The translations under genes were made by a program, and so were the position numbers. The notes under the pieces were generated by a model, which did not search any database, was not told the DNA's origin, and saw nothing but the letters and a program-made list of their open reading frames with translations. Below are positions 3,536-25,336 of a stretch of DNA of 29,969 nucleotides, in pieces. The DNA lies in the NCBI GenBank assembly GCA_964415445.1, contig CAYQAE010000008.1:2032-32000 (forward strand), in the 5' to 3' direction. Each line of letters begins with the position of its first letter. Position 1 is the first letter of the stretch. The stretch comes from an uncultured archaeon. GTDB taxonomy: Archaea; CAYQAE01.

Positions 3536-6500
3536 ATGAAAAACGTAAATAAAATGTTTATAGTATTTATAGCTATAATAAGCTTATCTTCATCTAGTGC
3601 TAATATTATAGTTAGCTCCGATGATCCTAATCTTCAAACCTCCTCTAAACTAGACTTGGGCTCTCTACCTTATCAATTTCAAGGTAGCACAATACTAAAA
3701 ATTAAAGCAGAAGATGAACCAGTAATTTATCAGGAAGTTGATTGGCAAATACCCGAATATGAACCTGCACTTTATGAAAATGAAAGCCAAGCAAGTTATA
3801 CTGAAGATTTTTGGGCTCAGTTTTTAATAAGCGAAGATTGGAGTAACTTGGACGAATTATTCCAAGTTTTTCAAGAAGGTAGAGCTGATGAATATAGTGA
3901 TGATGAAGATGAAGTAGAACCTTATCTTTATTTGGTAGATGTAAAGAATCCTTTTATTAAAATAAATATAAATAATCCTTACCCTGGAGTTAATCTCTCA
4001 ATTTCTGATTATTTTCTTCCATCATATATTATAAGAAACAAAACATATAATGATCAAACATGGATAGGCAATCCAATAGGTAAAATTAATTGGGTGGGAG
4101 AGCGAGACGGATATATTGTGGTCTCTAATGATGGAGGTAGTACTCTATATAATTTAACTTTTGGTATGCTTTGGGGTTTAAGAGATTCTTCTGATATGCA
4201 TAGACAAATTTCTCTTCCTATAAAACTTAATATAGATATTAATTTAAGTTATGATTTTGAAGCAGATAGCGATATTACTTCACAAATTGTATCTGGACTT
4301 ATTCAATTCTACAGTGAAGAGAATGGAACAAAAAGAGATGTTGATACTTCAACTGATCAAGATATAATTGTCGATGAGCCAGGTCTAAATTATTTTGATA
4401 CTAAATTACATTATACTCTAAAAACTACTCCTATCCCGCTTATTTTAGGTGAGACTTTTATTTGGGGCGAAGCTGAGATAAATGATTTTATAGATGATAC
4501 TTATTGGATAAATACTTTCTGTCCTGGTTTTGTATTTGATAAAGATTTACACGGAAAAAATAGTACTACTCTATTTTTTAGATTAGATTTTTCAGATTAT
4601 AATTATAATACACCAAATAGGATTGGTTATGAAGATATTATACCTTTAATTCAAGATCTTTATATGGAATATACAATAATGAACGGTAGCAATTCTAAAT
4701 ATGGATATTTTGGTTTGAATTATAATTATAACTTTAATTATTTTGAGAATATAATTCTTATCTCTGATTTAGGAGTTTCTAATCCAAAAAGTATTACTTT
4801 CAATATTACAGTTGAGACTATATATGGTGATACATTCTCTAGTGATAATGTTGAATTAATTATTTTAGAGCGTGGAAATTATGATGGAAATTCTCTTCTA
4901 AAATTAGGGTCTAATAATTTGTATAATGAGATAGTTGATGTAGGTGATATTTATTATGGTAGTTCAAAAACAGTTAATTTTCAGTTAGAGGATTTATATA
5001 TTCATCCAGCAGATAGGTTTAGTTCAAAAGTTAAATTCATAGAAGTTGATCCAACTACAGGGTATTTATATGCTTTAACTTGGCACGGATTATTTAGATC
5101 TAAAGATTATGGAAATAGATGGGAATTGATAAATGATGTTTATAAAGCAGAAGATGTAAATGCTATGGAAATTTCTCCTGCAGGTGATGTATTTATTGCT
5201 GTAAATGATGGAAAATATTATTTAAGATTAAATAGTGACAATACCTGGCCTTCTAATATGTATTGGGGACATATAAATGATTTAGAAGGGACAAATATTA
5301 CTGCATATGCGTTTTCACCGTGGTATGACGGCATAAATGATGATTTAATATTTTTTGGAACTGAAAATGGTCGTATTTTTAATGGTACAAACTCTAGTGG
5401 AATTGATCAGTGTATAACAGAACATGAAGACGATTTTGGTATGGGATCTAAAACTATTTCTTCTATTAGTTCAGAGTGGCCAATAACTGTAATTGAAACT
5501 GCAATTCTAAATTATACAACGGGAAGATATACAATTGCTGCAGGAACCCAATCTGCAGGTTTTTATTGGGCTAATAATGGTACAAATACATTAGATTATT
5601 CACATTTTTTTAATATGACAATTGATTGGAGAAATGTAGGTAGATTTACAGATGACATAAACCTCCTTTCAAATATCAGCAAATCAGATTTATCTGGCAT
5701 CGCACCATGGGATACACAATCTTATGATAGAACACATTTAGGTGGATGGATAAAAACCCGTCTTTTAGATCATGGATATAATACATATAATATTTCGAAA
5801 GTTTATAGCAGTAGTGAAAAACATGTAGATATAATTGATTCTGGTTTTCTATATAATGATACTATTAATTGGGAAAATTGTCTTGATAAAACAGGTGTTT
5901 TTCCTGAAGTTTTTTTATATTTACAATTTCCAAGTGATATTTTTTCTAACAATGGTGATATTGAAGAGCATCTAAAAAATACTCTAAACAATAGAAATAC
6001 AAGTTATCCTCATCAAGTAGAAAAAGTCTATATTGAAAATGAGGATATTAATCAAGTTGATGTAATAGAAGACTTATGGGAAGAATTTTTAGAATGGCTA
6101 CCTGAATGGGCACTTGGTAAAGAAGATTTTGATTTTTGGAAAATAAATAAAATTAAAGTAGAATACAAAACTTTCAATATCTCAGCTTTAAATGTCGAAT
6201 GTTTTAATTTTAATTATACATGGGATCCCGGAAACACAGTCAGCCATCTAGCTACTTGGAATTTGACTATAAACTATAAAAATGTAGGAGATTATACCCC
6301 TGACTATCCAAATAATTTTACAAATGTTAGCAGCAGTATAGATGGAGATACCATAAAAATTTGGCTTGAAGAAAATGGTTTTCCATACAATATACAAAAA
6401 GTATATGGTGGCAATTGGATAGATCAGGCCGAATATGATGGTAAAGGCGGCGGAGATGAAATAATAGCTTATAGAGTAGAATGTAACAATACTTATGATC

Positions 6501-9500
6501 TAGATTATCTTGTTTGGCATAATCAAATTTACATTGATCCGACTTATGGGGATATAGGTATGCGTGTTCCGAGCTGGATTACTGATATTGAATTTTCTCC
6601 TAATTATTCCAATGATGGACAAATATATATTGGCACAAGATCTGATGGTCTTCTATCTCAAGGTGTATATCAAACCACATGTGGAGCTCCGTGGGGCAAT
6701 GCAATATTAAATACTACGCCCATAGATGATCCACTTAACAATTATACTACATCTTTAACTATTTTAGGTGATTATTTATATGTTGGAACAAGTAATGGTG
6801 GAATCTATAGAGGAGATTCAAACGGGAATTGGAAAAATGTTGGGGATTTTAATTGGTTTGGTAATAATTTATACAATCAAAAAATAAATGATATTGAAGT
6901 AAATAATTCTAATCTATATGTTGCCACCGAAGGTGGTGGTATATTCAGAAATACTACTAATGGATGGACTGTGAACAATTCTGGTCTTGAAGAGATTAAT
7001 TGGTCTTTATATATGCAAAATAAAAATAAATTAGCTTCCGGTTTATATGAATGTGTCTCTGATGAAGACTATATAAATGGATATCTGCCAATTTTAGAGG
7101 GTAGTTCTGATTATAGATATGAATATAAAGTAAAAGATTGGAACGTGGCATTAATTGATGGGCAATATGTAGGAAACCTTACTTTAGAAATGTTTAATTG
7201 GAGAAAAGAAACCATAATGAATGCTTTTTCTGAGCTTAGAATAAGATGGGGATTCAATGAAAAAGATACTTCTTTTGGATCTACAGCTTTAATTAGTCTT
7301 GATCTTAATGCTATTTATCCGGATGTTTCTCAAACTGAAATTTTTGCAGATAGAAATACTATAGATGATTCGTCAGATTTAGAGATTAATTTAGATTTTT
7401 CTAAAAAGCTCAAAGATAGTGGTAAGATAAATGCAGTATATTTAGGCTATGGTCATGCTACAACGAATTTAACTTATGTAAAAATAGATGACAGCTATAA
7501 TTCTAATATATTCTCAGGAGGAAGCAATTATAATTATTCAATTGACAAAAGTATACTTCCTAGAGGTTATAGTGTATTTTTAGGTTTAGTTGAATGGGAA
7601 TATAATGGTAGTTACAAAAATATCACTTTTATACCTTCATATTATTCTGGTTTGGATTATCCTCAATATGTAGAGGATGATTTTACATATAAGCCTAAAA
7701 TATACTTTTTGAGACCACCCTCATATGAGATAGTCTCAGATGAAATATATTTTAGTCCAAGAGCTAGTGTAGATGTTTATAATTCTAAATTAGAAAATGT
7801 AACTGTGGAATATTGTGTGGTCAATTATTCTAATCATTCCCAAATAATTTCAGATGATATTTACAAAGATAAAATGTATTTTAAGGATATGGTAGATACT
7901 CTAAATTTAGTAGATGGAGATCCTCTCTGGGACTTTGCCAAAAGTTTGGGTAATTATTATTGGAATTCTAGCTCTTTTGAATTTAAAGGTTCATATGAAT
8001 GGAATCTTTTGTCTGTAAAAGTTTATGCCATCGATAAGGATAGAACACGACCAACTGATAAAACTTATTCTAAGCCATATAAATTTTTTGTATTAATTAC
8101 AGATGATGACCAAGAGCCACCTGAGATGTCTGAAATATCTTATACTTCTCAAGTAGGTAAAATTGTAGATAAAGAAAAAGATATAAATATAGAAATATCT
8201 ATTAGTGCATCAAATGATAATCCTGATTCTGGAGAAGAATTTAAAATTTATGTGTCTGTTACAAATCACAATAGTAGGAAATTTACTAGTGTTTATGAAT
8301 ACATTGTTAATTTAAGTGCTTTGGATGAAAATGTAGATGTTGAATTTTCTCATTTTTCCTCTGGTAAAAAATATACTTTAGGTCCATCAGAATCTCGTAT
8401 TGAGACATGGATAGTTACAGCGCATAGTGTAGGTCTAAAATCATTTGGTTTTCATCTTAGAAAAAGTGAAGCATATCATTATTTTGAAAATAATTTTAAT
8501 ATAGAAGTTGGAAATGATCCATTATATGATGTTTCTGATCTGAAAGTTAGGGCTAAGATAGTTGATGAAAGTAATATATCTTCAGCAATAATAAGATATA
8601 AATCAAATAAATATACTAATTGGCAAGAAATTTCTATGGATTATCAGGGAGATGATTATTACTCTATAGTTATACCTAGGGAAATTTCTGAACAAATAGA
8701 ATTTAAAATAGTTGCTTGGGATAATGATTCTAAAATTCAAAGAGATCAAGCTTATTCTTGGTCAGATATAATGGCCTGTGAAGGTTATGATTACATGCCA
8801 CCTACAATTTTAGATGTAAATTATATGCAAAATCAATCAACAAAAAATACTCTAAAAATAGCTGCTTATGTTGTAGATCCTGGAAGCGGTGTAAAAGAGG
8901 TGAAAATTCATTTTAAAGTATATTTTAAAGAAAATACAGATGGATTTGAGATTTATGAATCTCGAAACATGAAACAAAGTTCTTTTGATCCTAATTATTG
9001 GCAATATTCACTTACTACGAATAGACCTTTAGTTGATTTTGTTATTAGCGCTATAGATAATGAAGGCAATTCTATCATGACCAATCAATCTAAATCATAT
9101 AATAAGATATTTAATATGGCAATGTTTGATGCGACTCCTAGATATAAGAAAGAAGCAATTGACTATATCTTCTTCAGTCCTATTATCCCTAACAATATCA
9201 CGCCTGGTAAAATGATGAGGTCACATGTAAAAGCTTATGGAGATATTCAGGGAGTTCGTCTATATTTCAGAGGAGAAACAATGGAAACATACATTTTGAT
9301 GCCATATAATGGCACATATGCTAGTATAAATTGGAAAGTTCCAGTTTGTCTTGATCCAGGTAGATATAATATTAGTATGTTTTTGTTAGCAGAAAATGAG
9401 TATATAGCACTCAATGGAAGTAAAGCTATCTATGTTGATGAGACAGATCAAAATTATATTCTCTCTACAAATATTGTAGAAATTGAAAAAATATCAAAAA

Positions 9501-9931
9501 ATACTTACAAAGCTTATGTAAATGTATCCTACACCAATGGAGTTGAATTTGATACAGAATTAGGTGGAGCAGTGTATGTTAAAGTTAATGGTATTTTATA
9601 TTCAGCTGAGTATGATTCTGAAAGTGGACTTTGGGTAGCAACATTTAGTCCTGATAATGAAAATTTTGTGGTAAATGCATATGTAAGTGATCAAGACGGT
9701 CGAGCTGCAGTATCTAGTCGATCTGCAGATTTCACAGAATCTTCACATACTTTAGAATATATATTAATATCAGTTTTGATAGGTTCAACTTCTGTATTTG
9801 GTATAGTTATGTATAAATATCATAAAAAGAAAGAGGATCAACTTATATCTCAGATGATGGAGATAGAAAGAAAAGCAACAGAAGATGAAGTTACACAAGT
9901 TTTACATGAACATTTGTTTGATGATATGTGA
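3536..9931 (+). CDS. Giant secreted/membrane-anchored surface protein (2131 aa)
   Basis: Uninterrupted 6.4 kb ORF.
- N-terminal signal-like segment: MFIVFIAIISLSSSSA.
- Degenerate Asp-box/propeller repeats: RSKDYGNRW, YVGTSNGGIYRGDSNGNW, YVATEGGGIFRNTTNGW.
- CARDB-like segment at about 8150-8520.
- Ig-like modules at about 8520-9100.
- C-terminal TM helix (YILISVLIGSTSVFGIVMY, about 9757-9822) and a charged cytoplasmic tail.
- More than 30 N-x-S/T sequons by eye. Confidence 0.9.
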   Translation: MKNVNKMFIVFIAIISLSSSSANIIVSSDDPNLQTSSKLDLGSLPYQFQGSTILKIKAEDEPVIYQEVDWQIPEYEPALYENESQASYTEDFWAQFLISEDWSNLDELFQVFQEGRADEYSDDEDEVEPYLYLVDVKNPFIKININNPYPGVNLSISDYFLPSYIIRNKTYNDQTWIGNPIGKINWVGERDGYIVVSNDGGSTLYNLTFGMLWGLRDSSDMHRQISLPIKLNIDINLSYDFEADSDITSQIVSGLIQFYSEENGTKRDVDTSTDQDIIVDEPGLNYFDTKLHYTLKTTPIPLILGETFIWGEAEINDFIDDTYWINTFCPGFVFDKDLHGKNSTTLFFRLDFSDYNYNTPNRIGYEDIIPLIQDLYMEYTIMNGSNSKYGYFGLNYNYNFNYFENIILISDLGVSNPKSITFNITVETIYGDTFSSDNVELIILERGNYDGNSLLKLGSNNLYNEIVDVGDIYYGSSKTVNFQLEDLYIHPADRFSSKVKFIEVDPTTGYLYALTWHGLFRSKDYGNRWELINDVYKAEDVNAMEISPAGDVFIAVNDGKYYLRLNSDNTWPSNMYWGHINDLEGTNITAYAFSPWYDGINDDLIFFGTENGRIFNGTNSSGIDQCITEHEDDFGMGSKTISSISSEWPITVIETAILNYTTGRYTIAAGTQSAGFYWANNGTNTLDYSHFFNMTIDWRNVGRFTDDINLLSNISKSDLSGIAPWDTQSYDRTHLGGWIKTRLLDHGYNTYNISKVYSSSEKHVDIIDSGFLYNDTINWENCLDKTGVFPEVFLYLQFPSDIFSNNGDIEEHLKNTLNNRNTSYPHQVEKVYIENEDINQVDVIEDLWEEFLEWLPEWALGKEDFDFWKINKIKVEYKTFNISALNVECFNFNYTWDPGNTVSHLATWNLTINYKNVGDYTPDYPNNFTNVSSSIDGDTIKIWLEENGFPYNIQKVYGGNWIDQAEYDGKGGGDEIIAYRVECNNTYDLDYLVWHNQIYIDPTYGDIGMRVPSWITDIEFSPNYSNDGQIYIGTRSDGLLSQGVYQTTCGAPWGNAILNTTPIDDPLNNYTTSLTILGDYLYVGTSNGGIYRGDSNGNWKNVGDFNWFGNNLYNQKINDIEVNNSNLYVATEGGGIFRNTTNGWTVNNSGLEEINWSLYMQNKNKLASGLYECVSDEDYINGYLPILEGSSDYRYEYKVKDWNVALIDGQYVGNLTLEMFNWRKETIMNAFSELRIRWGFNEKDTSFGSTALISLDLNAIYPDVSQTEIFADRNTIDDSSDLEINLDFSKKLKDSGKINAVYLGYGHATTNLTYVKIDDSYNSNIFSGGSNYNYSIDKSILPRGYSVFLGLVEWEYNGSYKNITFIPSYYSGLDYPQYVEDDFTYKPKIYFLRPPSYEIVSDEIYFSPRASVDVYNSKLENVTVEYCVVNYSNHSQIISDDIYKDKMYFKDMVDTLNLVDGDPLWDFAKSLGNYYWNSSSFEFKGSYEWNLLSVKVYAIDKDRTRPTDKTYSKPYKFFVLITDDDQEPPEMSEISYTSQVGKIVDKEKDINIEISISASNDNPDSGEEFKIYVSVTNHNSRKFTSVYEYIVNLSALDENVDVEFSHFSSGKKYTLGPSESRIETWIVTAHSVGLKSFGFHLRKSEAYHYFENNFNIEVGNDPLYDVSDLKVRAKIVDESNISSAIIRYKSNKYTNWQEISMDYQGDDYYSIVIPREISEQIEFKIVAWDNDSKIQRDQAYSWSDIMACEGYDYMPPTILDVNYMQNQSTKNTLKIAAYVVDPGSGVKEVKIHFKVYFKENTDGFEIYESRNMKQSSFDPNYWQYSLTTNRPLVDFVISAIDNEGNSIMTNQSKSYNKIFNMAMFDATPRYKKEAIDYIFFSPIIPNNITPGKMMRSHVKAYGDIQGVRLYFRGETMETYILMPYNGTYASINWKVPVCLDPGRYNISMFLLAENEYIALNGSKAIYVDETDQNYILSTNIVEIEKISKNTYKAYVNVSYTNGVEFDTELGGAVYVKVNGILYSAEYDSESGLWVATFSPDNENFVVNAYVSDQDGRAAVSSRSADFTESSHTLEYILISVLIGSTSVFGIVMYKYHKKKEDQLISQMMEIERKATEDEVTQVLHEHLFDDM
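5612..6412 (+). repeat. Internal protein-level duplication within the 2131-aa protein
   Basis: NMTIDWRNVGRFTDD...NISKS...GYNTYNISKVYSS (about 5612-5812) aligns with NLTINYKNVGDYTPD...NVSSS...GFPYNIQKVYGG (about 6260-6412). Confidence 0.6.
9198..9931 (+). repeat. C-terminal anchor region, paralogous copy 1 (pairs with 14020-14742)
   Basis: Shared motifs with the second giant protein: PGRYNIS/KGDYNIT, LNGSK/LDGSK, EKI..NTYKAYVNVSY/EKL..NKYKIYISVNY, VYVKVNGILY/VYVKIRGIIY, SDQDGRAA/SDGRTAT. A TM helix and an acidic tail follow in both. Confidence 0.75.
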
Positions 9932-9936
9932 TTTTA

Positions 9937-12900
9937 ATGTTAAATTCAAAAATAAAATATAAGGGATTCACTGTATTTTTATCTCTAATTTTGAGTATAT
10001 CAATATCTTCTTCTATGTTAGTATCTAATGAAGATAAAATTGATTTTGGATATATATCTCCTGGAGAAACTACATATAATTTAGAAATTTATGCAGATTC
10101 TAGATTGCCTTATTATGAACATAATCATCAATTTAATTCATCTGAAACTATTTATGAATTTGGAGATTTTAAATCAAATTATAAAACTAAAGATGGTAGT
10201 ATCTTAGAAGATAAATATAGTATTTTTTGGAATGAATTTTTCATCCAATATATGGACACCTTAGGTGCTTTTAGAATAGCTAACGATATTACTTTAGAGA
10301 ATGATATATACTATACTTTAGAAAATGAAACTAATCAAGTTAAGCTCATTGAAAATGATATAAAAATAAATTTTAGCATATCTGACTCTTTAAGTTTTTT
10401 TGATGTTACAATTGGTGGTAAAAAAAGAGGCGAATTAACTTCTATATCATATTCTGACTTACTTTCATATAATAAAGATAGCCCATATAATTTAGAAATA
10501 AAAATAGATTATACTTATAATAATGAACTTCAAAACCTACCTCTAATAATAGGGCAGATTAATTTTACAGTTTATAAAGATGAAGACAAATATGTAATTC
10601 GTATACCTTATAGAGCAAGATTAATTTCCCACTTTGAATTGATTTATGGGGAGCCAAAAAAATATGAAAATGGAAATTTTTTCTGGAGAGGTTCAAAAGG
10701 TTATTTTTGCCCAAAAACTGTCTCTGTTGAAGACGATTTACAATTCAAATTAGATTTAATAAAATCTGATTTGGATAAATCTTATGAAGAAAAAGAAATT
10801 TTAAAAGAATCAATTGACAGTGTTTATATATATTATGATTGGGATAAAGCATTAAATATTTCAGATGCACCTGTGGATACCTCAGAGGCAGAAGGAAGAT
10901 TAAATACAGATATAGTCAAATTAAAATATAGTTTCTATGGGTGGTCTATGAATTTTACTTTGGATCCAGGGGGGCCTGTAGATGACAACAGATTATATTT
11001 TGTTCCTTTAGTATTCATAAATGATCAAAGACCTTCTGATGATATTTTATATACTTTAAATAGAAGTATAAGAGTCATAAATGATTCTAAATATGTAGTA
11101 GGAAATTTAAGTATAAGCGAACCACAATATTTAGATTTTAATCCTGATAATATCGCTGATAACTTAATATTATATAATTATTCTCTCAATTTCACATGCG
11201 CTTGGGAACTTAATGCAGGAGGAACAGGCGATTGGATTAAAAAATGGGCACAAAATACAGATGATTTGTATGATGGTGGCACTACCAGAAATCCAATATT
11301 TTATGGTAATTTTTATGATGGAGTAGATGTAAATTTAGTTGAATGGAATTATAATGGAACTCATGCTGGTTTTACTTTAAATGTAAAAAATTTACATAAA
11401 GAATATGGCACAAAGAAGTTATATTTAAATATAACTTACAATAACATCTCTTCAAATCAAATAGATATCAATTTTATATCTATATACCCGGATGAAGATT
11501 CTTTTAATTTATCTAAAGATATAATAGTTTCAGATGATATATCTAGTTTAAATATTTACATAAATAATTCCACTTCATATAATTATTTGCTTGAAGAAAA
11601 TATAAATCGAATTTTTCTTAAATTATATAAAGAAGGTATTATTGATTTGAATGAAACACATTCTAATAACTTTAATATTTATAGACATGGACATGAGGTA
11701 TTATTAGATTATAATTTACATTTTTCTGGAATCTCTTCTGATGTAGTAGATCTTAGTTCAAAACAGACAAAATTAAGTTCAGATTCTTCTTTAATATTTT
11801 GGGTTAATTTAAATTTTTCAGGGGATCCAAAAGAATATATCCATGGTATTTTTTCAAATGAGAGCACAGGTAGAAATGAAAACTATATTTCTATATATAA
11901 CGCAGGAGATGGAGAACATCAAATACATTGCAAAGGTAGCGAAGGAATCTGGGTAAATTCATCAAATATTTCATTATCTTTAAATAAATGGCATCAGATA
12001 GCAATAATTTTAGATGATGATATCTTAAATTTTTATTATGATGGCCAATCGTTTGGTTCTTATTCGTTTCCCGACAAAATTGATTTAGACTATTTAGGAG
12101 TAGGTTATTTAGATTCTTATTTAAATGGATCAATAGATGAAGTTATTTTTTATGATAGGAAACTAAGTTCTGATGCCATTTGGGATTTATATTCATCGTC
12201 TGAATTTTATATTCCTAAAATTTTATTGGACAATTTTTCAGAATTTAATGGAATAGATGATCAAATAGATCTTAGTTCAGAAAATTTAGGTTTAGATAAA
12301 GATACTTCTTTGATAGTTTGGATTAGGCCAAAAAATTTAGAGGATGGAAAAAGTCAAGGTATTTTCTCAAGTAGGGGAATTGGTTCTTTGGATAATTATA
12401 TTACTTTGGCTAAAACTGATTCTGGTAAAGCTCATATTTACTATGAAGATAAAGATGGCAACGCAAGAAATTCTTCTGAATTTTCATTAAGTTTAGATAA
12501 GTGGCATCAAATAGCTATTGTAATGAATGAGGGCGGTATTCCTAATTTTTATTATGATGGTGAATTTTTGGGCAGTGATATAGCTTCAGGTAAAATTGAT
12601 CTAAATTATTTAGGATTAGGACATTATTATTTTGACAATAGAAGCCATTTTAATGGATCAATAGGTGAAGTTACTTTTTATGATAAGGCTTTAAGTTCTA
12701 ATGCTATTTTAGCTCTTAATAATTCTATTAGTTTTTCTGAATCTAAAATAGAATTATATAATTATACTGAAATATCCATTCCTACTTTAAATTATTATAA
12801 TATCCCTAAATCTGATTTTATAGACAAAGCTTCAACTGGAGAATCTTTTTCTCTATATTATGTCCCTATCTTTGAATGGAATTTATCAGATGGAAATTTA

Positions 12901-14742
12901 GTTAACCTTACAAATTATAATTATGATTCATTTTCTAAATTTTATAAAATAACCATCGTCGATGATGATTCTCAAAAACCAAATCTAGAACTCTTCTCTC
13001 CCGAGTATATTTCAAGTGAATCTGAAATATCTTCTGATCAAAGCTTAAATATTGTGGTAAATGCATCTGATGCACAATCAAACTTAGAATACGTAAATAT
13101 TACTTATCAATATTTTAATGAAACTACAAATATTACAAATTATTTTACTAAACAGATGCAAAAATCTGGAAATAGTTATAATTATACTCTCAATTTCGAT
13201 GAGGCATATGAAAATTGCTTTATACAATTTTATATTATAGCTTATAATGATGATTTAGATCATATTTATGATCAAGAATTTAATTCACTTGGCCCCTATT
13301 CATATAGGATCTTAGATGATGATAATACATCTCCAAGAGTATCAGATTTAGAAGCTAATATCTTTGGATCAGAAGTTGTAATTTCTGCAGATATTGTAGA
13401 TAGTGGTGGAATTTATAATGCAACTCTCTTTTATAGAAATTTAGAGACATCTTGGAAATTTATTGACATGTTCTATGAAAATGGTGTCTATAATGTTACT
13501 TTAGAAGGAAATAATGCAACATATGTAGAATATTATGTTGTGGCATTTGATAATGATTCAATATCTGATTCTGATAAACAGATGAGTTTAACTGAAATAT
13601 ATTCGGTATATTCAGATGATACAAAACCACCTGAGATTTTTGAGATAATCTATCCGATAGATGTTGATTATGGTGAATCTAGTGCAATATGTTCATTTGT
13701 AGATGATTATGCATCAGGTGTAAATTATGTTAATTTAGTTTGGAGTTATGCAGATGAAAATACAGAATCAGAATATTCTGAATATATAACAACACAGATG
13801 AAAAAAATTGGAGGCACTAATATGTATGTCACAAATCTAATTTCATTTTATCCATATATTAGATTTTATGTAACATCTGAGGATAATGCAGGAAATTTAA
13901 ATACATCTGATGAATATACTGCTAAATTTGTACCTAAAGCAAATCAAAATAGAGGCAATAGTTTATTTTTGGACTTCTCTTTTGATAATATGAATATATC
14001 AAACTTAACTACTGCTAAAAATTATAATCCCACACTTTTAGGCCTTGGAAATATACAAAAAGTATCTATAGGGGTATTTGGAGATGAATTTTCAACTATA
14101 ATAAATTTAGAAAAATCAGAAAATAATTTATGGAAAAATCAATGGTATACACCTTATGCTATGCCAAAAGGAGATTATAATATAACAATCTCCTACACAG
14201 ATTCTAATGGTAAATCCTATACTTTGGATGGCTCAAAAATATTTACTGTCAAAAAATCAGATGTAGATGCACAAATTCTAATTTCAATTTTTAATTTTGA
14301 AAAATTAGATGAAAACAAATACAAGATTTATATTTCTGTTAATTATTCTCAGGATATCTCTTTTGATGCAGAATATGATTTTGGGTCAGTTTATGTTAAA
14401 ATAAGAGGAATAATCTATCCTGCATTTTATAATAATACTTCTGGCAATTGGTATTGTATATATGAGACAGATGAAGAATATTTCTTAATCCGTGCTTTTG
14501 CCTATGATAGTGATGGCAGAACTGCGACAACAACTTATCTTGTGGAGGCTCCAAAATCCTTTGATTATACAAATTATATTGTTGGTGTAGTTGTAACATT
14601 TTTAGGTATCTCTGGTGGAGTAGCACTTCAGAAACGTCAAAAATCAAAGAAAAAGGAAATTTTAGAGACACTCAAGAGAGTTCAAAAAGAGCGAGATGAT
14701 GAAGAAATAACTAAAACCTTCCATGATGAATTGTTTGATTAA
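9937..14742 (+). CDS. Giant surface protein paralogue (about 1600 aa)
   Basis: 4.8 kb ORF.
- I prefer the ATG at 9937, which is preceded by a GTGAT SD-like element at 9928-9932. The ORF track starts at GTG 9928, which overlaps the upstream stop.
- Signal-like segment: FTVFLSLILSISISSS.
- Two LamG-like domains.
- Three Ig-like modules bounded by DDDSQKP / DDDNTSP / DDTKPPE.
- The C-terminal region is homologous to the upstream protein.
- TM helix YIVGVVVTFLGISGGVAL (about 14572-14631), followed by an acidic tail. Confidence 0.9.
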   Translation: MLNSKIKYKGFTVFLSLILSISISSSMLVSNEDKIDFGYISPGETTYNLEIYADSRLPYYEHNHQFNSSETIYEFGDFKSNYKTKDGSILEDKYSIFWNEFFIQYMDTLGAFRIANDITLENDIYYTLENETNQVKLIENDIKINFSISDSLSFFDVTIGGKKRGELTSISYSDLLSYNKDSPYNLEIKIDYTYNNELQNLPLIIGQINFTVYKDEDKYVIRIPYRARLISHFELIYGEPKKYENGNFFWRGSKGYFCPKTVSVEDDLQFKLDLIKSDLDKSYEEKEILKESIDSVYIYYDWDKALNISDAPVDTSEAEGRLNTDIVKLKYSFYGWSMNFTLDPGGPVDDNRLYFVPLVFINDQRPSDDILYTLNRSIRVINDSKYVVGNLSISEPQYLDFNPDNIADNLILYNYSLNFTCAWELNAGGTGDWIKKWAQNTDDLYDGGTTRNPIFYGNFYDGVDVNLVEWNYNGTHAGFTLNVKNLHKEYGTKKLYLNITYNNISSNQIDINFISIYPDEDSFNLSKDIIVSDDISSLNIYINNSTSYNYLLEENINRIFLKLYKEGIIDLNETHSNNFNIYRHGHEVLLDYNLHFSGISSDVVDLSSKQTKLSSDSSLIFWVNLNFSGDPKEYIHGIFSNESTGRNENYISIYNAGDGEHQIHCKGSEGIWVNSSNISLSLNKWHQIAIILDDDILNFYYDGQSFGSYSFPDKIDLDYLGVGYLDSYLNGSIDEVIFYDRKLSSDAIWDLYSSSEFYIPKILLDNFSEFNGIDDQIDLSSENLGLDKDTSLIVWIRPKNLEDGKSQGIFSSRGIGSLDNYITLAKTDSGKAHIYYEDKDGNARNSSEFSLSLDKWHQIAIVMNEGGIPNFYYDGEFLGSDIASGKIDLNYLGLGHYYFDNRSHFNGSIGEVTFYDKALSSNAILALNNSISFSESKIELYNYTEISIPTLNYYNIPKSDFIDKASTGESFSLYYVPIFEWNLSDGNLVNLTNYNYDSFSKFYKITIVDDDSQKPNLELFSPEYISSESEISSDQSLNIVVNASDAQSNLEYVNITYQYFNETTNITNYFTKQMQKSGNSYNYTLNFDEAYENCFIQFYIIAYNDDLDHIYDQEFNSLGPYSYRILDDDNTSPRVSDLEANIFGSEVVISADIVDSGGIYNATLFYRNLETSWKFIDMFYENGVYNVTLEGNNATYVEYYVVAFDNDSISDSDKQMSLTEIYSVYSDDTKPPEIFEIIYPIDVDYGESSAICSFVDDYASGVNYVNLVWSYADENTESEYSEYITTQMKKIGGTNMYVTNLISFYPYIRFYVTSEDNAGNLNTSDEYTAKFVPKANQNRGNSLFLDFSFDNMNISNLTTAKNYNPTLLGLGNIQKVSIGVFGDEFSTIINLEKSENNLWKNQWYTPYAMPKGDYNITISYTDSNGKSYTLDGSKIFTVKKSDVDAQILISIFNFEKLDENKYKIYISVNYSQDISFDAEYDFGSVYVKIRGIIYPAFYNNTSGNWYCIYETDEEYFLIRAFAYDSDGRTATTTYLVEAPKSFDYTNYIVGVVVTFLGISGGVALQKRQKSKKKEILETLKRVQKERDDEEITKTFHDELFD
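11719..12725 (+). repeat. Tandem pair of LamG / concanavalin-A-like lectin domains (protein-level repeat)
   Basis: Two units of about 160 aa.
- Unit 1: ...SSLIFWVNLNF...GIFSNES...SLSLNKWHQIAIILDDDILNFYYDGQSFGS...LNGSIDEVIFYDRKLSSDAIWDLY.
- Unit 2: ...TSLIVWIRPKN...GIFSSRG...SLSLDKWHQIAIVMNEGGIPNFYYDGEFLGS...FNGSIGEVTFYDKALSSNAILAL.
- Both match the Laminin_G_3 pattern (WH..A......l.lY.DG......G.iDEv.iY..aLs..ei). Confidence 0.8.
14020..14742 (+). repeat. C-terminal anchor region, paralogous copy 2 (pairs with 9198-9931)
   Basis: See copy 1. The two regions align by eye over about 240 aa, including the terminal motif D-[DE]-E-[VI]-T-x-x-[LF]-H-[ED]-x-L-F-D. Confidence 0.75.
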
Positions 14743-14817
14743 TTTTATTTCTATCTCCTAAAGTGTTAAAGATTTTCTAGATTAATGTTATTTTGAGATT
14801 TAATTTAAGTGATTTTA

Positions 14818-15003
14818 ATGGCAGAAAATCGACCAATTTGTGCTGAATGTGCAGATTACATGAAAAAATTGAAATTAAAAAAAGGAGATCACAAAGATCA
14901 CGAAGTTTATAGATGTTGCAAAACTATCTATTGTAAAACTTGCAAAAAATACTTAAAAGAAAATTGTTTTACTTATGAAGATCCTGTTTCATATCTGTTT
15001 TAG
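14818..15003 (+). CDS. Small Cys-rich zinc-ribbon protein (61 aa from the ATG; 64 aa from GTG 14809)
   Basis: MAENRPICAECADYMKK...YRCCKTIYCKTCKKYLKENC carries CxxC pairs. The ATG at 14818 follows the same GTGATTTTA context as the upstream giant gene. The stop lies 3 nt before the next CDS. Confidence 0.6.
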   Translation: MAENRPICAECADYMKKLKLKKGDHKDHEVYRCCKTIYCKTCKKYLKENCFTYEDPVSYLF

Positions 15004-15006
15004 TAG

Positions 15007-15759
15007 GTGTTAGTTTTGGAAGATGTTACTGTATTTGGTGGAAAAAAAGGAGATAAAAAATCAAATTATTCATTTGATAAAAAAATATCTACAGGCATTG
15101 AGGCATTAGATAAAAAAATTGAAAGTGGACTACCTATAGGTAGCAGAGTATTAGTCTTTGGGGATGTTGCCACGTCTAAAACTATTTTTTCTCTTAATAT
15201 GATTTTGAAAAATGTTAATTCTAAAGAAAAAGGATTATATATCACCTTAGATGAAAATATAGATGAATTCTTACAAAATGCTACTAATCTAGATTTTAAA
15301 ATACCAGATAAAACTTTGAAAGTCTATGATGAGAATTTAGGACAAGAAGATGATATTTTTGGAGAAGAAAAATCTCTCACTTTAGATAAATTAATATCAG
15401 AACTTCCTGATATAATACAAACTAATGATTTTAAACATATAGTTATCGATCCTATTACTAGTTTAGTTGAAGGATATAATAATAATTTAGATATGAAAAA
15501 TAACCTAAAACAATTATTTAAAGAGTTAATTAGACTAAACTTAAATTCAATTATTTGTATCTTGGATAGTTATTTCGATTATAAAGTTTTATCTCCACTT
15601 TTTACTTCTTCAATTGAATTGAAAAGAGATGCAAAACGTAAAAAAGTACGAAAAGAAATTTCAATCAAAAAAATTAGAGGTATGAAAGTAAAACCACAAC
15701 CATATGAATTTAGGATCGAAAAAGGAAAAATTGATCTTCTAAGCAAATATAGATCATAA
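15007..15759 (+). CDS. KaiC/RecA-superfamily protein with degenerate Walker A
   Basis: KaiC-like N-terminus TGIEALDKKIESGLPIGSRVLVFGDVATSKT. The Walker A at 15160-15183 reads GDVATSKT, so the second conserved Gly is Ser. Walker B-like HIVIDPITSL. The start may be GTG 15007 or TTG 15016. The 3' end overlaps the convergent FAU-1 gene by 6 nt. Confidence 0.8.
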   Translation: MLVLEDVTVFGGKKGDKKSNYSFDKKISTGIEALDKKIESGLPIGSRVLVFGDVATSKTIFSLNMILKNVNSKEKGLYITLDENIDEFLQNATNLDFKIPDKTLKVYDENLGQEDDIFGEEKSLTLDKLISELPDIIQTNDFKHIVIDPITSLVEGYNNNLDMKNNLKQLFKELIRLNLNSIICILDSYFDYKVLSPLFTSSIELKRDAKRKKVRKEISIKKIRGMKVKPQPYEFRIEKGKIDLLSKYRS

Positions 15760-17145
15760 TTTGGATTGTAATTTTTTTGCAATTGCCATTGATTCTTTAA
15801 ATAGTTCTTCTGTTATCATCCCTAAGTCATAAGCTCTTTTTAAGTGTTTTTCATCTCTTAATTCTGGATCTTTCTCTGGTGATTTAACTATATCTACTTC
15901 TAAATCTATATATCTTGCTCTATCTGGATAAATTTCAATTGGGGTATTTATATTTACATATTTCCCTTTTAATTTACCATCTGCACTAAAGTACTCATTT
16001 TTATAATGCCACATGCCCTCTTCTATTGTAGTGAGAGCATAATCTCCTCTCTCTTTGGGTGAATTTAGACCATCATATATACCTGGAGTTTGCATCTCTC
16101 TATAAATTACAATTTTCTCATCGTTGATTTTTTTCACTATTCCATTAAGTTTGAATTTAGATCCATTAATCTTTAGATGTTCTAAAAAAAACTTCTGTCC
16201 AACTCGTGGTCCTTTTACAATTTTTAATGATTCTTTGAATTTTTCAATTAATTTTTTTTCATCTTTAATTATATCAGTAAAAGTCTCCATTACATCTACT
16301 AAAAGTGAGATATCATCTGTGCCTGACTTATATTTATGATGGCCATCTAATGTTTTCATAATCTTTTTTCTAATTTTGTCAAATTTTTGCTTTGACCTAT
16401 GGCTGAAATCAATTTCAACATATTTTTTTCCATCTAAAAGCTTTGCAGGTGCTTTTACTTTTGAATTTTTTACTCTCCCAAATTTATCTCTTATGTTTTC
16501 AATTTCATCAATTAATTGTTCGCTGTTTAATGATATCGCTGGAGTTTTCCAGACGAATCCATTTCCAATTCCCTTCTTTTTTTTAGCTAAATTTAGAAGA
16601 TTAACTTTTTTTTCAACTTCAATTTTGTTATCAACTATAATTTTATCTTCAAAAGGAAGAACAGAAGCATATTCATCTGATACTGTATAATACATTGAAA
16701 TTAAGGGCATTTTCTTAGAAAAAGGAATATTTTTTATCTGAACTATTGCTTCATCTGCTACTTTTAGTCTCTCTTTAGTATTTGAAAAGGGCAAAAACCC
16801 TGTAAAATGACCTAAATCCATAAGTAGGGCTCTTTTGTCATAATCGATTTGCAATACTTTCCCTTTATATATCGCATTATGTTCAATATTACTCTCTCTT
16901 ACTATAATATCTTCTACATTTTCTTTTATTTTATTTAGGAATTCTCGTATAAGTTCAGGTTTTCCAGAAATTGATATTCCTCTTTTTTCATTGTCTTTAA
17001 GCTCAATTTGGTGAGCTCTAAAATCTTTTTCTAAATTTAATCTCTCTATCAAAACTGAAGATGGATCTACAATATTAAAGCCAAAATCTTGAGAAAGTTT
17101 AGTTAAGGCACTTGCAAACATTCCCCTTATTCGAATATTTTTCAT
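15754..17145 (-). CDS. fau-1: Probable ribonuclease FAU-1 (archaeal RNA-binding protein AU-1, RNase E/G-like, C-terminal DUF402)
   Basis: 463 aa. Characteristic N-terminus MKNIRIRGMFASALTKL...FNIVDPS. Length and C-terminal ...YIDLEVDIV... region are as in the FAU-1/DUF402 family. Recognised from memory. Confidence 0.8.
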   Translation of the reverse strand: MKNIRIRGMFASALTKLSQDFGFNIVDPSSVLIERLNLEKDFRAHQIELKDNEKRGISISGKPELIREFLNKIKENVEDIIVRESNIEHNAIYKGKVLQIDYDKRALLMDLGHFTGFLPFSNTKERLKVADEAIVQIKNIPFSKKMPLISMYYTVSDEYASVLPFEDKIIVDNKIEVEKKVNLLNLAKKKKGIGNGFVWKTPAISLNSEQLIDEIENIRDKFGRVKNSKVKAPAKLLDGKKYVEIDFSHRSKQKFDKIRKKIMKTLDGHHKYKSGTDDISLLVDVMETFTDIIKDEKKLIEKFKESLKIVKGPRVGQKFFLEHLKINGSKFKLNGIVKKINDEKIVIYREMQTPGIYDGLNSPKERGDYALTTIEEGMWHYKNEYFSADGKLKGKYVNINTPIEIYPDRARYIDLEVDIVKSPEKDPELRDEKHLKRAYDLGMITEELFKESMAIAKKLQSKL

Positions 17146-17267: not shown

Positions 17268-18356
17268 ATGTTTTATTTGATAAAATCAGAAATTAGGGAT
17301 AAATTAAGTTCTATGGGTGAACATATCTTTGATCTAATAAATAAGGATGAAAATCCTTGGATAGATATACCTGTGCGCTCTTATTCGAATATTGAATTTG
17401 ATGAAGATACAGGGTTATTAGATTTAGGTGATAAAAAATCAAGGAGATATTTTCTAAATTTAGGTCATGCTAAAAAATTTATGCAGACTACATTAGTTGC
17501 AGCTTTTTGTAAAGAATTAATAGGAGAAGGAGTCCATGCTAATTTAAGGGAAATGTTTTATTCACTAAAGCATACCGTAGGTGGAACAAAAGAGAATACT
17601 TTTGATGAACAGAGAGAATCAGATCCAATTGTAGTAGATTTAGAAGTTGCCCTAGATATTTTGAGGGAACAGATGCATGTAAATGCAGATAGACGTGGAG
17701 TTGCAGCAGGTCGTGTTACTATCCAAGATCGAGGAGATATTATCGATTGGAGTAAATTAGGCAGTGGTGGTTGGTCAATACCTAGTAATGTTGAAGATTT
17801 AACTATAAAAGATGCAAAAGCTGATTATATTTTAGTTGTGGAGAAAAATGCTACTTTTGATAGACTTCATGAAGATAAATTTTGGGATAGACACAATTGT
17901 ATTTTAGTAGGAACCCAAGGTCAAGCAGCACGTGGTATTCGTAGATTAATTCGACGTTTACATGAACAATTTGATCTACCTGTTTATGTCTTTGCAGATT
18001 GTGATGCATATGGATTCTATATTTATTCTGTTATAAAAATAGGTTCTATGAATTTAGCCCATGTTTCCCAAAAGTTAGGAACACCTAATGCAAAATTTTT
18101 GGGATTAACCATGTCAGATATAGAGCACTATGGTTTGGATAATTATACCATCAGAGCAACAGAAAGCGATCTCAAAAGGGTGGCTGAGCTTAAAAAATAT
18201 AGTTGGTTCTCTTCAGCCAAATGGCAGAGAGAATTAAATAAAATGAAAAAAAGAAAAATTAAAGCAGAACAGGAAGCATTAGCTTCTAAAAGGTTAAAAT
18301 TTGTCTCAGAAGAATATCTACCCAAAAAAATAGCTGAAAGAGATTTTGTAGAATAA
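17268..18356 (+). CDS. top6A: DNA topoisomerase VI subunit A (Spo11 homologue)
   Basis: Catalytic-Tyr context LREMFYSLKH. Toprim region ILVVEKNATFDRL, GTQGQAARGIRRLIRRL, VYVFADCDAYGFYIYSV. 362 aa. Confidence 0.93.
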   Translation: MFYLIKSEIRDKLSSMGEHIFDLINKDENPWIDIPVRSYSNIEFDEDTGLLDLGDKKSRRYFLNLGHAKKFMQTTLVAAFCKELIGEGVHANLREMFYSLKHTVGGTKENTFDEQRESDPIVVDLEVALDILREQMHVNADRRGVAAGRVTIQDRGDIIDWSKLGSGGWSIPSNVEDLTIKDAKADYILVVEKNATFDRLHEDKFWDRHNCILVGTQGQAARGIRRLIRRLHEQFDLPVYVFADCDAYGFYIYSVIKIGSMNLAHVSQKLGTPNAKFLGLTMSDIEHYGLDNYTIRATESDLKRVAELKKYSWFSSAKWQRELNKMKKRKIKAEQEALASKRLKFVSEEYLPKKIAERDFVE

Positions 18357-18361
18357 GTTTA

Positions 18362-19069
18362 TTATGGCCTTTGCATACCATATGGTGGTAGGGGCATTAA
18401 CATTCTTTTTTTTGGACTACGCATTATCGCAGCTGATATCATAAATAATATACAACCAATAAAGAAGAAAATAGGCGCTATTGTAAAATGCCATATATCT
18501 TTTGCAATTGTATTATTTAATTCCTCTGCAATATCTACTAAAACCTGTATTCCTGAAATAATAGATATAAAACCTAAAATTATCATTATAATTTTTAGTC
18601 CAATATTGTATTTAGCAATAGATATGAAACTTAAAATCATTAATATAACTGCTAATCCTGCCAATGTTCCATTATAATCTGTATCAAACGTTTCATCATA
18701 TTCTTCTAATGTTATCTCTTCATTGAGTCCTACTGCTGGAAGATTAAATCTTAACCAAGGCAAACTTATTGTAATAAGCATAAAAAACGAAAAAACTAAT
18801 GAAAAGAAAGCAGCAACTCTATGTCTATATTTCTTTTTTTTCATTGTTGAGGCTGCTGTTGTGGGATATTTGCTGACAGATGCTCCTTGATATGGCCCAT
18901 ATGTTTTTGGTGGATAATTTTGAGTTCGTGGATCCCATATTATAGGTGTACCACAATTGGGACATACTTTCATAGTTTCATTGATTTCAGCTTTGCAAGT
19001 TGCACATAATCCTTCTCTCATCCAATCACAAAATAAATTTTGGACATATATCATTAAAAAAGTTCTCAA
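18362..19069 (-). CDS. Zinc-ribbon membrane protein
   Basis: N-terminal ribbon CATCKAEINETMKVCPNCGTPI, a Pro/Tyr-rich linker, then about four TM helices. The true start is possibly the ATG at 19021 (MREGLCATC). Confidence 0.7.
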   Translation of the reverse strand: MRTFLMIYVQNLFCDWMREGLCATCKAEINETMKVCPNCGTPIIWDPRTQNYPPKTYGPYQGASVSKYPTTAASTMKKKKYRHRVAAFFSLVFSFFMLITISLPWLRFNLPAVGLNEEITLEEYDETFDTDYNGTLAGLAVILMILSFISIAKYNIGLKIIMIILGFISIISGIQVLVDIAEELNNTIAKDIWHFTIAPIFFFIGCILFMISAAIMRSPKKRMLMPLPPYGMQRP

Positions 19070-19178: not shown

Positions 19179-19279
19179 GCCGAGGTGGCCCAGCCTGGCT
19201 AAGGCGCGAGCCTGGAGACAAAAAGCAAGATAGCTCGTTTCTCTTTGGAGAATCGTGGGTTCAAATCCCACCCTCGGCG
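19179..19279 (+). tRNA. tRNA-Ser(GGA), type II, with a 14-nt intron at the canonical 37/38 position
   Basis: Manual cloverleaf:
- Acceptor GCCGAGG/CCTCGGC with discriminator G.
- D arm GCCC-AGCCTGGCTA-AGGC.
- Anticodon stem CGAGC/GCTCG with loop CTGGAG..A; anticodon at 19214-19216.
- Intron at about 19218-19231.
- Long variable arm TTCTC-TTTG-GAGAA.
- T arm GTGGG-TTCAAAT-CCCAC.
- No encoded CCA; T-rich tract downstream. Confidence 0.9.
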
Positions 19280-21427: not shown

Positions 21428-21470
21428 TTTCTCAAAATTAAACATTTTGAGAAACTATTTTTTATTTTTT
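21428..21470 (+). terminator. Hairpin plus oligo-T terminator downstream of csp
   Basis: Perfect 11-nt inverted repeat TTTCTCAAAAT (21428-21438) / ATTTTGAGAAA (21444-21454) with loop TAAAC. It is followed by CTATTTTTTATTTTTT. It sits between convergent genes. Confidence 0.55.
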
Positions 21471-23203: not shown

Positions 23204-23208
23204 ATATA

Positions 23209-23302
23209 TGGGCCTGGAGGGATTTGAACCCCCGACCTATTGGTCACTTCCACTTTTTCATGTCCGAAGCCAATCGCGCCATCCAAGCTACGCCACAGAC
23301 CC
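23209..23302 (-). tRNA. tRNA-Arg(TCG) with a 19-nt canonical-position intron
   Basis: Manual cloverleaf on the minus strand:
- Acceptor GGGTCTG/CAGGCCC (one G-U pair).
- D stem GCGT/GCGC.
- Anticodon stem ATTGG/CCAAT with loop CTTCGG..A; anticodon at 23265-23267.
- Intron at 23245-23263.
- T arm GGGGG-TTCAAAT-CCCTC.
- Textbook BHB: central helix CTTC/GAAG flanked by 3-nt bulges GGA and TGA. Confidence 0.9.
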
Positions 23303-23307
23303 AAAAA

Positions 23308-25332: not shown

Positions 25333-25336
25333 TTAG

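Follow-up and report, generated by a model that had tools for sequence, protein, structure and literature searches.

Two genes for giant surface proteins, here called P1 and P2, are followed on the same strand by genes for a 61-amino-acid (aa) putative zinc-binding protein (Zn protein) and a 250-aa KaiC-like protein in a stretch of 29,969 nucleotides (nt) from an uncultured archaeon (assembly GCA_964415445.1, contig CAYQAE010000008.1, positions 2,032 to 32,000; this whole stretch is referred to as the window and is numbered from its first letter). On a balance that we judge to lie slightly on the favourable side of even, the four genes make up two neighbouring but separately acting units, and inherited gene order is the preferred explanation for their adjacency. 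The first unit (3536-14742) would be a two-gene, translationally coupled operon for paralogous adhesin- or lectin-like surface proteins; the second (14818-15759) would be a bicistron for a 61-aa protein with eight candidate Zn ligands and a lineage-specific P-loop protein of the KaiC family. An earlier note on this DNA had put forward all four genes as a candidate surface-to-cytoplasm module.

Two coupled genes for giant surface proteins

The features of the first unit are as follows.

3536-9931, + strand: P1, giant surface protein, open reading frame (ORF) of 2131 aa (245 kDa, isoelectric point 4.4), predicted type-I membrane-anchored
3536-3619, + strand: signal-peptide-like N terminus of P1, MKNVNKMFIVFIAIISLSSSSANI..., with a Kyte-Doolittle hydrophobic segment at aa 7-28
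5099-6949, + strand: P1 region with blade-like motifs, namely one strict Asp-box SKDYGNRW (aa 522) and G-G-I-[FY]-R-type motifs at aa 612, 1088, and 1134
7994-9928, + strand: P1 C-terminal region homologous to P2, comprising predicted all-beta modules of ~100-140 aa, a membrane-proximal part, the transmembrane (TM) helix, and the tail
8102-9115, + strand: P1 stalk modules Ma to Mc, collinear with P2 modules M1 to M3 (z-scores 5.9, 12.7, and 9.3)
9749-9817, + strand: predicted TM helix of P1 (aa 2072-2094), followed at 9818-9928 by a 37-aa cytoplasmic tail ending EDEVTQVLHEHLFDDM
9928-9939, + strand: P1/P2 junction, 12-mer GTGATTTTAATG, in which a Shine-Dalgarno (SD)-like GTGAT is separated by 4 nt from the ATG of P2
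9937-14742, + strand: P2, giant surface protein, 1601 aa (184 kDa, isoelectric point 4.4), predicted type-I membrane-anchored, paralogous to P1 over ~620 aa at its C terminus
11737-12180 and 12250-12708, + strand: tandem Laminin_G_3 domains of P2 (PF13385, concanavalin-A-like lectin type)
12961-13935, + strand: P2 repeat modules M1 to M3 (aa 1009-1333), of immunoglobulin (Ig)-like size, predicted all-beta
14572-14634, + strand: predicted TM helix of P2 (aa 1546-1566), followed at 14635-14739 by a 35-aa cytoplasmic tail ending DDEEITKTFHDELFD

The head-to-tail arrangement of two giant ORFs of 2131 and about 1600 aa described in the earlier note was confirmed (3536-9931 and 9928/9937-14742). The P2 frame can also be read from position 9928 (1604 aa), the form starting with the ATG at 9937 being the version in public data; at 6.4 and 4.8 kb in DNA of 29% G+C, the two frames are not attributable to chance. 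P1 and P2 are tandem paralogues, translationally coupled through an SD-like motif that overlaps the P1 stop codon. Specifically, the stop codon TGA (9929-9931) is overlapped by the GTGAT at 9928-9932, and the ATG of P2 follows at 9937, in agreement with the earlier placement of the SD motif and start of P2 within, or 5 nt after, the last P1 codons. The identical 12-mer recurs at the start of the Zn gene (14809-14820), and most genes in the window are preceded by SD-like motifs.

Both giants possess the signal-like N terminus (that of P2 being likewise hydrophobic and Sec-type signal-like) and the single TM helix previously ascribed to them. The short acidic tail was also found in both; its 35 to 37 residues are Lys-rich by the membrane and then acidic, and end with HEHLFDDM in P1 and HDELFD in P2. 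No archaeosortase-type sorting signal (PGF-CTERM and relatives) precedes the TM helices, which are followed by these 35 to 37 residues, and no NCBIfam model of a sorting signal matched. P1 contains 51 N-x-S/T sequons (27.1 +/- 4.6 in shuffled sequences) and P2 contains 48 (22 +/- 3.9), i.e., about twice the shuffle expectation in both proteins, with z-scores of about 5 to 6.5. Acidity and sequon excess fit N-glycosylated extracellular proteins. P1 and P2 would be exported by a Sec-type route, heavily N-glycosylated, and held by one C-terminal membrane helix, with the tail facing the cytoplasm.

Common stalk and different tips

As judged by sequence comparison, P1 and P2 have a common stalk, anchor, and tail with different tips and do not follow one shared mosaic plan, because their homology is confined to the C-terminal part and the N-terminal two-thirds are unrelated sequences. 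In BLASTP, residues 1667-2129 of P1 aligned with residues 1148-1604 of P2 at 28% identity over ~470 columns (E value 9e-45), and a longer alignment of P1 1487-2129 with P2 979-1601 reached 25% identity over ~640 columns (E 3e-41). The homologous region, for which some 240 aa had been claimed, hence extends over about 470 to 640 aa. Of the common plan put forward earlier, the signal, the TM helix, and the tail are retained, whereas a shared mosaic ectodomain is not.

The repeat modules of the shared region are ~100-140 aa long and each begin with DD(D)xxxP(P); within P2, the internal repeats scored z = 9.1 for M1 and M3 and z = 5.3 for M1 and M2. AlphaFold2, run on the shared C-terminal region with a two-sequence alignment, returned nearly all beta strands, in a low-confidence model too poor for further use (predicted local distance difference test [pLDDT] 43.8). 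The membrane-proximal part of P2, at roughly aa 1365-1444, gave sub-threshold matches, among them the Ig-like hints Big_13 (E 7.8e-4; 20.3 bits versus a cut-off of 27) and DUF4625 (E 0.06), and also DUF4912. The predicted ~100-aa all-beta repeat modules are compatible with Ig-like folds. Neither CARDB nor PKD domains matched P1 or P2, even at E values up to 1 on segments of 260 to 320 aa, so that the CARDB modules named in the earlier note are without a profile match, the Ig-like hints being sub-threshold only; Kelch and YVTN repeats and ATPase domains were likewise not detected in profile scans of the two proteins.

The tip of P2 features the two Laminin_G_3 domains, which were identified with E 7.1e-33 (114.3 bits versus a cut-off of 27.6) in two stretches (aa 604-751 and about 770-925) and with E 1.1e-22 and 2.8e-17 in segment scans. 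P1 gave no Laminin_G_3 match, and the LamG pair attributed to both giants belongs to P2. For P1, no match was obtained in Pfam or NCBIfam, nor did its residues 480-1180 match any PDB sequence. Propeller-type profiles scored weakly (BNR_6, E 0.28; Vps18 propeller, E 0.03), a match to the NCBIfam F510_1955 glycosylhydrolase stayed under the cut-off (E 1.6e-4), and the single-sequence AlphaFold2 model of aa 480-1180 was too poor for use (pLDDT 33.4). The region at 5099-6949 is a possible candidate for a BNR-type propeller; the Asp-box/propeller repeats reported for both giants are unsupported by Pfam, PDB, and AlphaFold2, there being one strict Asp-box in P1 and no Asp-box or BNR propeller motif in P2.

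The common stalk of ~100-aa all-beta modules would display the LamG pair in P2 and an orphan sequence with BNR-like blades in P1. The two proteins likely serve in the binding of glycans, surfaces, or other cells, a role that has been proposed for large LamG, propeller, and Ig-like surface proteins in archaea, including DPANN. Where uncultured archaea attach to substrates or to one another, surface proteins of this type are commonly the first candidates.

A conserved pair of genes for a putative Zn-binding and a KaiC-like protein

The second unit comprises the following features.

14809-14820, + strand: start context of the Zn gene, with SD-like GTGAT, a 4-nt spacer, and ATG; AGTGATT is conserved in contig L005 (see below)
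14818-15003, + strand: 61-aa putative Zn-binding protein, from a three-sequence alignment with the versions in contigs L005 and L004
15007-15759, + strand: KaiC-like protein of 250 aa with a single KaiC/RecA-superfamily domain; start codon GTG at 15007 or TTG at 15016
15160-15183, + strand: Walker A motif GDVATSKT of the KaiC-like protein, with Ser for the second Gly
15247-15258, + strand: motif LDEN of the KaiC-like protein, with a conserved Glu (E83) that is invariant in an eight-sequence alignment
15436-15450, + strand: Walker B motif HIVID (aa 144-148) of the KaiC-like protein, aligning with the Walker B motif of homologues

By its sequence, this is a genuine, tightly coupled gene pair that is conserved in two related contigs, L004 and L005. 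The latter, a 4.8-kb contig from a South China Sea cold-seep metagenome that was reached via the neighbouring FAU-1 gene, is the sole informative relative. The spacing reported earlier, with a 61-aa Cys-rich ORF 75 nt past P2 and a 250-aa ORF 3 nt further on, was found to be correct; the distance between the two genes is 4 nt in L004 and 14 nt in L005. The Zn protein is 60 to 74% identical to the versions in these contigs and has conserved candidate Zn ligands at C8, C11, H25, H28, C33, C34, C39, and C42, which form two CxxC patterns (8, 11 and 39, 42), one HxxH (25, 28), and one CC (33, 34). A C-terminal motif, TYEDPxSxxF, is also kept in the orthologues. Searches of Pfam, NCBIfam, PADLOC, PHROG, and PDB gave no match for this protein; of the features expected from its former designation as a Zn-ribbon, it has a Cys/His-rich sequence and two conserved CxxC motifs but no zinc-ribbon family match in Pfam, NCBIfam, or PDB.

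The KaiC/RecA fold proposed for the 250-aa protein is well supported, since its residues 27-245 matched the Pfam KaiC/ATPase family PF06745 with E 8.9e-32 (110.7 bits versus a cut-off of 26.6); the best PDB match was KaiC 8zn5 (CI domain, E 2.8e-19). A KK[MI]RG motif is conserved, and an N-terminal extension of ~22 aa is, according to the alignment, specific to this subfamily. A full-library phmmer search of 1.84 billion representative proteins returned 1,993 KaiC-family matches, only three of which fell below 1e-30: one from the same organism and two fragmentary orthologues at 58% and 50% identity. A word-indexed search found the same organism only. The degenerate Walker A motif pointed out in the earlier note holds for the window copy but not for the subfamily, as the P-loops of the orthologues are canonical (GPESAGKS in L005 and GPQSSGKS in P0011). 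GDVATSKT is private to the organism of the window and is not an assembly error, given that the same sequence is present in an independent assembly (L001, SRR7048220). In a further metagenome contig from NCBI (L003, JAZHCG012867745.1, positions 1-585), the KaiC-like orthologue has an in-frame stop (…ENLGSG*DMFEEEK…), reflecting either a pseudogene or an assembly error.

The KaiC-like protein reached no cut-off among the curated NCBIfam families. It differs from circadian KaiC in having a single 250-aa domain instead of the duplicated CI and CII (~500 aa), and the corresponding NCBIfam scores were 85.4 versus 408 bits and 52.6 versus 546 bits; no window protein matched KaiA or KaiB. An identity as ArlH/FlaH was not supported (NF052589, 58.8 bits versus a cut-off of 215), and the window contains no ArlI, ArlJ, or archaellin genes. 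KaiC_arch_4 scored 60.3 versus 247.8 bits, the cut-off of KaiC_arch_3 was likewise not reached, and RadB (NF006861) scored 16.5 bits versus a cut-off of 278, the motif LDEN being of the KaiC type and not of the DTEG type. A defence-system or viral origin was rejected, as PADLOC gave no match for the window proteins searched and PHROG matches were generic (RecA/DnaB-type only). By analogy with ArlH, CirA, and further KaiC-like ATPases of archaea, the KaiC-like protein most likely acts as a cytoplasmic nucleotide-dependent regulatory switch, and the Zn protein would be its partner; we infer this regulatory role, like the adhesion role of the giants, from such comparisons.

The window carries a second single-domain KaiC-like gene (27810-28754, + strand; 314 aa), which encodes a canonical P-loop (GAPGTGKT) and a C-terminal extension of ~90 aa. 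Its product is only 22% identical to the 250-aa protein, it has no Zn-protein gene upstream, and its neighbour encodes a CitMHS transporter.

Gene order and distribution

Downstream of the pair lie two housekeeping genes.

15754-17145, - strand: FAU-1/DUF402 ribonuclease (RNase)
17268-18356: topoisomerase VI (Topo VI) subunit A (Top6A)

L005 shows, in the same order and orientation, a P2 orthologue (its last 449 residues, 55% identity), the Zn gene, the KaiC-like gene, the convergent FAU-1 gene (61%), and Top6A (88%). Among related contigs, L005 alone has the length to reveal what precedes the pair, and there it again adjoins a P2-type giant; a consistent lack of linkage to giant surface proteins, which according to the earlier note would refute a module, was thus not observed. 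Conserved order in L005 is, however, expected from common descent, because L005 stems from a close relative (Top6A 88%) and the housekeeping genes FAU-1 and Top6A are syntenic as well. Neither the pair nor the giants were found at 80 Top6A loci of GTDB or at five distant FAU-1 loci (~33-36% identity). A GTDB scan with patterns of the KaiC-like protein gave no match, a scan of JGI metagenomes yielded only a phage DnaB-like locus (L002), IMG/VR scans for the stalk of the giants and for the Zn protein gave no match, and no giant homologues were found beyond the relative represented by L005. A word-indexed search for the giants with the C-terminal 465 aa of P1 (8534-9931) retrieved nothing, not even the P1 and P2 entries of the collection, and is an unreliable negative.

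The convergent arrangement of the KaiC-like and FAU-1 genes, whose 3' ends overlap by 6 nt (15754-15759), is kept in L003 and L005 and bears on another reading of the pair, namely a role in nucleic-acid metabolism together with FAU-1 and Top6A, the KaiC-like protein being a RadC/RadB-like RecA paralogue, the Zn protein a Zn-ribbon binder of nucleic acids, and the giants an unrelated upstream insertion. SSO2452, a RadA paralogue of archaea (2w0m, E 1.6e-10), likewise falls within PF06745, PHROG matches included DnaB- and UvsX-type proteins, and in another genome (L090; GCA_000258515.1, AJLF01000002.1, 6001-8420) a Thermococcus-like FAU-1 gene faces a convergent gene of the RadB type (239 aa). 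Against this, the NCBIfam scores were 85 bits for KaiC versus 16.5 for RadB and 20.5 for RadA, convergent genes are not co-transcribed, and identity to the L090 RadB (motifs GPYASGKTT and VDTEGGF) was 25% (31 bits, BLASTP). Palaeococcus and four other FAU-1 loci lack a RecA-type neighbour, and the agreement in position between the L090 radB and the KaiC-like gene is probably a coincidence. We consider a nucleic-acid role very unlikely. The notion that the KaiC-like gene is the positional equivalent of radB was rejected on the sequence scores and the non-conservation in Palaeococcus.

The region between the giants and the pair

14758-14795, + strand: conserved non-coding block CTAAAGTGTTAAAGATTTTCTAGATTAATGTTATTTTG, 38 nt within the 75-nt gap between P2 and the Zn gene

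This block is ~87% identical to its counterpart in L005 (hand count on the alignment), compared with 63 to 69% for the flanking coding DNA and 50% for the FAU-1/Top6A intergenic region. It is preceded by a diverged stretch; between its end and the start codon of the Zn gene lie ~22 nt, in which the conserved SD-like motif is found. The block is unique in the window; a shared operator was rejected, as the 38-nt motif recurs neither upstream of P1 nor elsewhere. Its conservation suggests, as the simplest reading, that the Zn/KaiC-like pair has its own promoter or operator and a short leader. A scan for sigma-70 promoters and intrinsic terminators, which is inapplicable to archaea, gave nothing useful, TATA-like patterns sought in front of the genes of the window were uninformative at 29% G+C, and the comparison with L005 revealed no conserved terminator in the gap. 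Of the strong independent promoter and the terminator in 14743-14817 that, according to the earlier note, would together refute a module, a promoter would be in accordance with the conserved block, whereas a conserved terminator was not found.

These data also bear on the alternative that the pair controls expression, export, glycosylation, or shedding of the giants without touching their tails, being produced by read-through from P1-P2 and tuned by the element in the gap. Co-orientation together with the lack of a conserved terminator would be in line with such control, as would the 12-mer that forms the SD and start context of P2 and of the Zn gene alike, the proposal that KaiC-like ATPases are regulatory hubs, with CirA affecting motility of Haloferax (PMC10983859), and a nanohaloarchaeal gene for a giant surface protein that is also followed by an ATPase gene (PMC10266531). 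The nanohaloarchaeal ATPase, however, is of the VirB4/TraG type and not of the KaiC type, the Zn protein could be assigned to no family, DNA-binding or otherwise, and the same caveat on synteny applies, L005 being close and its housekeeping genes syntenic too. Indirect control of this kind appears improbable.

Cytoplasmic tails and the case for a link between the units

The tails of P1 and P2 are 23% identical and the adjacent ectodomain 29%; between P2 and its L005 orthologue, tail identity is 57% (hand count on the alignment) versus 55% over the entire alignment. The last 14 residues of the P1 and P2 tails reach 43% identity and contain the motif E[VI]T..H..LFD, and the last 9 residues of the P2 tail are 78% identical to those of the orthologue, which ends with ...FHDELFES. 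The tail motif is real, yet over its full length the tail shows no sign of being more tightly constrained than the ectodomain. The conserved tails of the earlier note are accordingly a matter of the last ~14 residues and not of the whole length.

If the Zn protein, the KaiC-like protein, or both dock on the P1 and P2 tails, the four genes would constitute a module for outside-in sensing, anchoring, or turnover. In favour of docking, the genes lie on the same strand with short gaps, the order of a P2-like giant, Zn, and KaiC-like genes is kept in L005, the terminal motif is shared by paralogues and orthologues, and the gap between P2 and the Zn gene lacks a conserved terminator. Conversely, L005 is too near to discriminate, its housekeeping neighbours being syntenic too; the whole tails are no better conserved than the adjoining or overall sequence in a way that would single them out (23% versus 29% and 57% versus 55%); the 38-nt block suggests separate control of the pair; and neither the pair nor the giants were found in any other lineage scanned, leaving no independent co-occurrence. 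We regard docking as unlikely. Quite improbable, too, is the more specific idea that the motif E[VI]T..H..LF[DE] in the tails of giant glycosylated receptors recruits a Zn-finger adaptor and a KaiC-type NTPase as an outside-in adhesion and signalling device; if true, this device would follow the same logic as the adhesion receptors of eukaryotes and would be undescribed for any archaeon. Were the adjacency functional, it would represent a first example, in archaea, of a surface receptor connected to a switch of the KaiC type and provide a handle on the function of the many orphan archaeal KaiC-like ATPases.

The reading of two separately acting units has to be held against several observations that do not favour it. 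The order of giant, Zn, and KaiC-like genes is kept in L005, the single relative that allows it to be seen, and P1, P2, and the orthologue in L005 have in common the motif E[VI]T..H..LF[DE], a hint of a ligand in the cytoplasm. As all four genes are on the same strand and a conserved terminator is lacking, co-transcription by read-through from P2, and with it a functional link, is possible; moreover, no clear match to a B recognition element (BRE) or TATA box was found for the 38-nt block in this AT-rich DNA (29% G+C), in contrast to what its reading as a promoter would suggest. Finally, substitution of a Walker A glycine in Haloferax CirA acts as a loss of function (PMC10983859), for which reason the KaiC-like copy of the window may be impaired; the Gly-to-Ser change in its P-loop may mean that it no longer hydrolyses nucleoside triphosphates (NTPs). 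Of the surface-to-cytoplasm module, the conserved order in L005 stands, whereas the closeness of L005, the lack of constraint on whole tails, and the absence from other lineages scanned speak against it. A functional tie between the giants and the pair is unproven, being neither refuted nor supported beyond inherited adjacency.

Source organism and further features of the window

The window has a G+C content of 26 to 34% and encodes archaeal markers: Topo VI subunit A, an ELP3-type radical S-adenosylmethionine (SAM)/GNAT protein, and the FAU-1/DUF402 RNase, in addition to two tRNA matches. All window proteins that were looked up are singletons, all from one NCBI contig of 35 kb. Among the species representatives of GTDB, the closest Top6A proteins retrieved were of DPANN type, from Altiarchaeota, Aenigmatarchaeota, and Undinarchaeota, and no more than 65% identical. 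This retrieval relied on two exact peptide patterns and is biased by them, which leaves the affiliation of the lineage uncertain. The source is an uncultured low-G+C marine archaeon from a cold seep, without a close GTDB genome. Source samples of this lineage are SRR7048220, the South China Sea cold-seep sample ERZ23498471 (SAMN18200496), ERZ23498365, and GCA_044240345.1.

The two tRNA matches (23208-23303, - strand, and 19179-19279, + strand) measure 94 to 101 nt against a model of 71 positions; one was assigned as tRNA-Pro(CGG) by ARAGORN and Rfam, the other was found by Rfam only. Both probably bear introns, as their extra length suggests, and this would be in keeping with an archaeal origin. 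Zinc-ribbon proteins are encoded by a gene cluster at 18362-19069 (- strand), 21462-22328 (- strand), and 22457-23203 (+ strand); one member of 248 aa features five double-zinc-ribbon repeats (DZR, E 2.8e-34), and the other two have one zinc ribbon each plus uncharacterised regions. At 24778-25759 (+ strand), adjoining ORFs of 184 and 140 aa with no family match are located upstream of a PhoU-like gene and a CitMHS transporter gene.

Comparison with known systems

In eukaryotic adhesion receptors of the integrin and cadherin type, short cytoplasmic tails recruit adaptors. P1 and P2 resemble such type-I receptors in their large, in this case predictedly glycosylated, ectodomain, one TM helix, and short tail; there is no sequence relationship, and the likeness is one of analogy.

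Closer parallels are offered by archaeal surface proteins. Large LamG/propeller/Ig-like (PKD, CARDB) surface proteins of DPANN archaea are well documented, are presumed to bind hosts or glycans and are often tandem and strain-specific (PMC10266531, PMC5498576). Those of Ca. Nanohalococcus (SVXNc_0801-0831) and Mia14 combine LamG with tandem beta-sandwich modules in tandem or operon arrangement, and P2 with its two Laminin_G_3 domains is alike; unlike them, P1 is without a recognisable domain, and PKD, CARDB, Kelch, and YVTN were undetected in both giants. The nanohaloarchaeal SPEARE giants, of 8,900 to 9,400 aa, carry a VirB4-like ATPase domain of their own and are followed by a gene for a VirB4/TraG ATPase, which their authors consider to be part of one system (PMC10266531). 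The window shares with SPEARE the succession of a gene for a giant membrane-anchored surface protein and a same-strand ATPase gene, but P1 and P2 have only a 35- to 37-aa tail and no ATPase domain, and the neighbour is a 250-aa protein of the KaiC type with a Zn partner.

The KaiC-like protein resembles ArlH/FlaH, CirA, PH0186, PH0284, and SSO2452 in its one KaiC domain of ~230-250 aa, its match to PF06745, the catalytic Glu, the Walker B Asp, and KK[MI]RG. Single-domain archaeal KaiC-like ATPases were reportedly proposed as signal-transduction hubs by Makarova, Galperin, and Koonin (mBio 8:e01959-17, 2017). Single-domain members such as ArlH and CirA are established or proposed archaeal regulators, and CirA regulates surface-structure-dependent motility in Haloferax (PMC10983859). 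The protein described here is set apart from the ArlH/CirA group by the N-terminal extension of its subfamily, by the 61-aa Zn protein as a dedicated partner, by a Ser in the Walker A motif of the window copy, and by the lack of archaellum genes nearby. Taken individually, the genes for P1, P2, the Zn protein, and the KaiC-like protein are of ordinary types, in a lineage that has been little sampled. The searches made brought up no description of a Zn protein paired with this KaiC-like subfamily, a pairing that is confined to a very narrow lineage. Set beside these known systems, the window documents a lineage-specific tandem family of giant adhesin-like proteins that have a modular stalk in common, a new, very narrowly distributed Zn-protein/KaiC-like gene pair, and a non-coding element that is conserved in the gap separating this pair from the giants.

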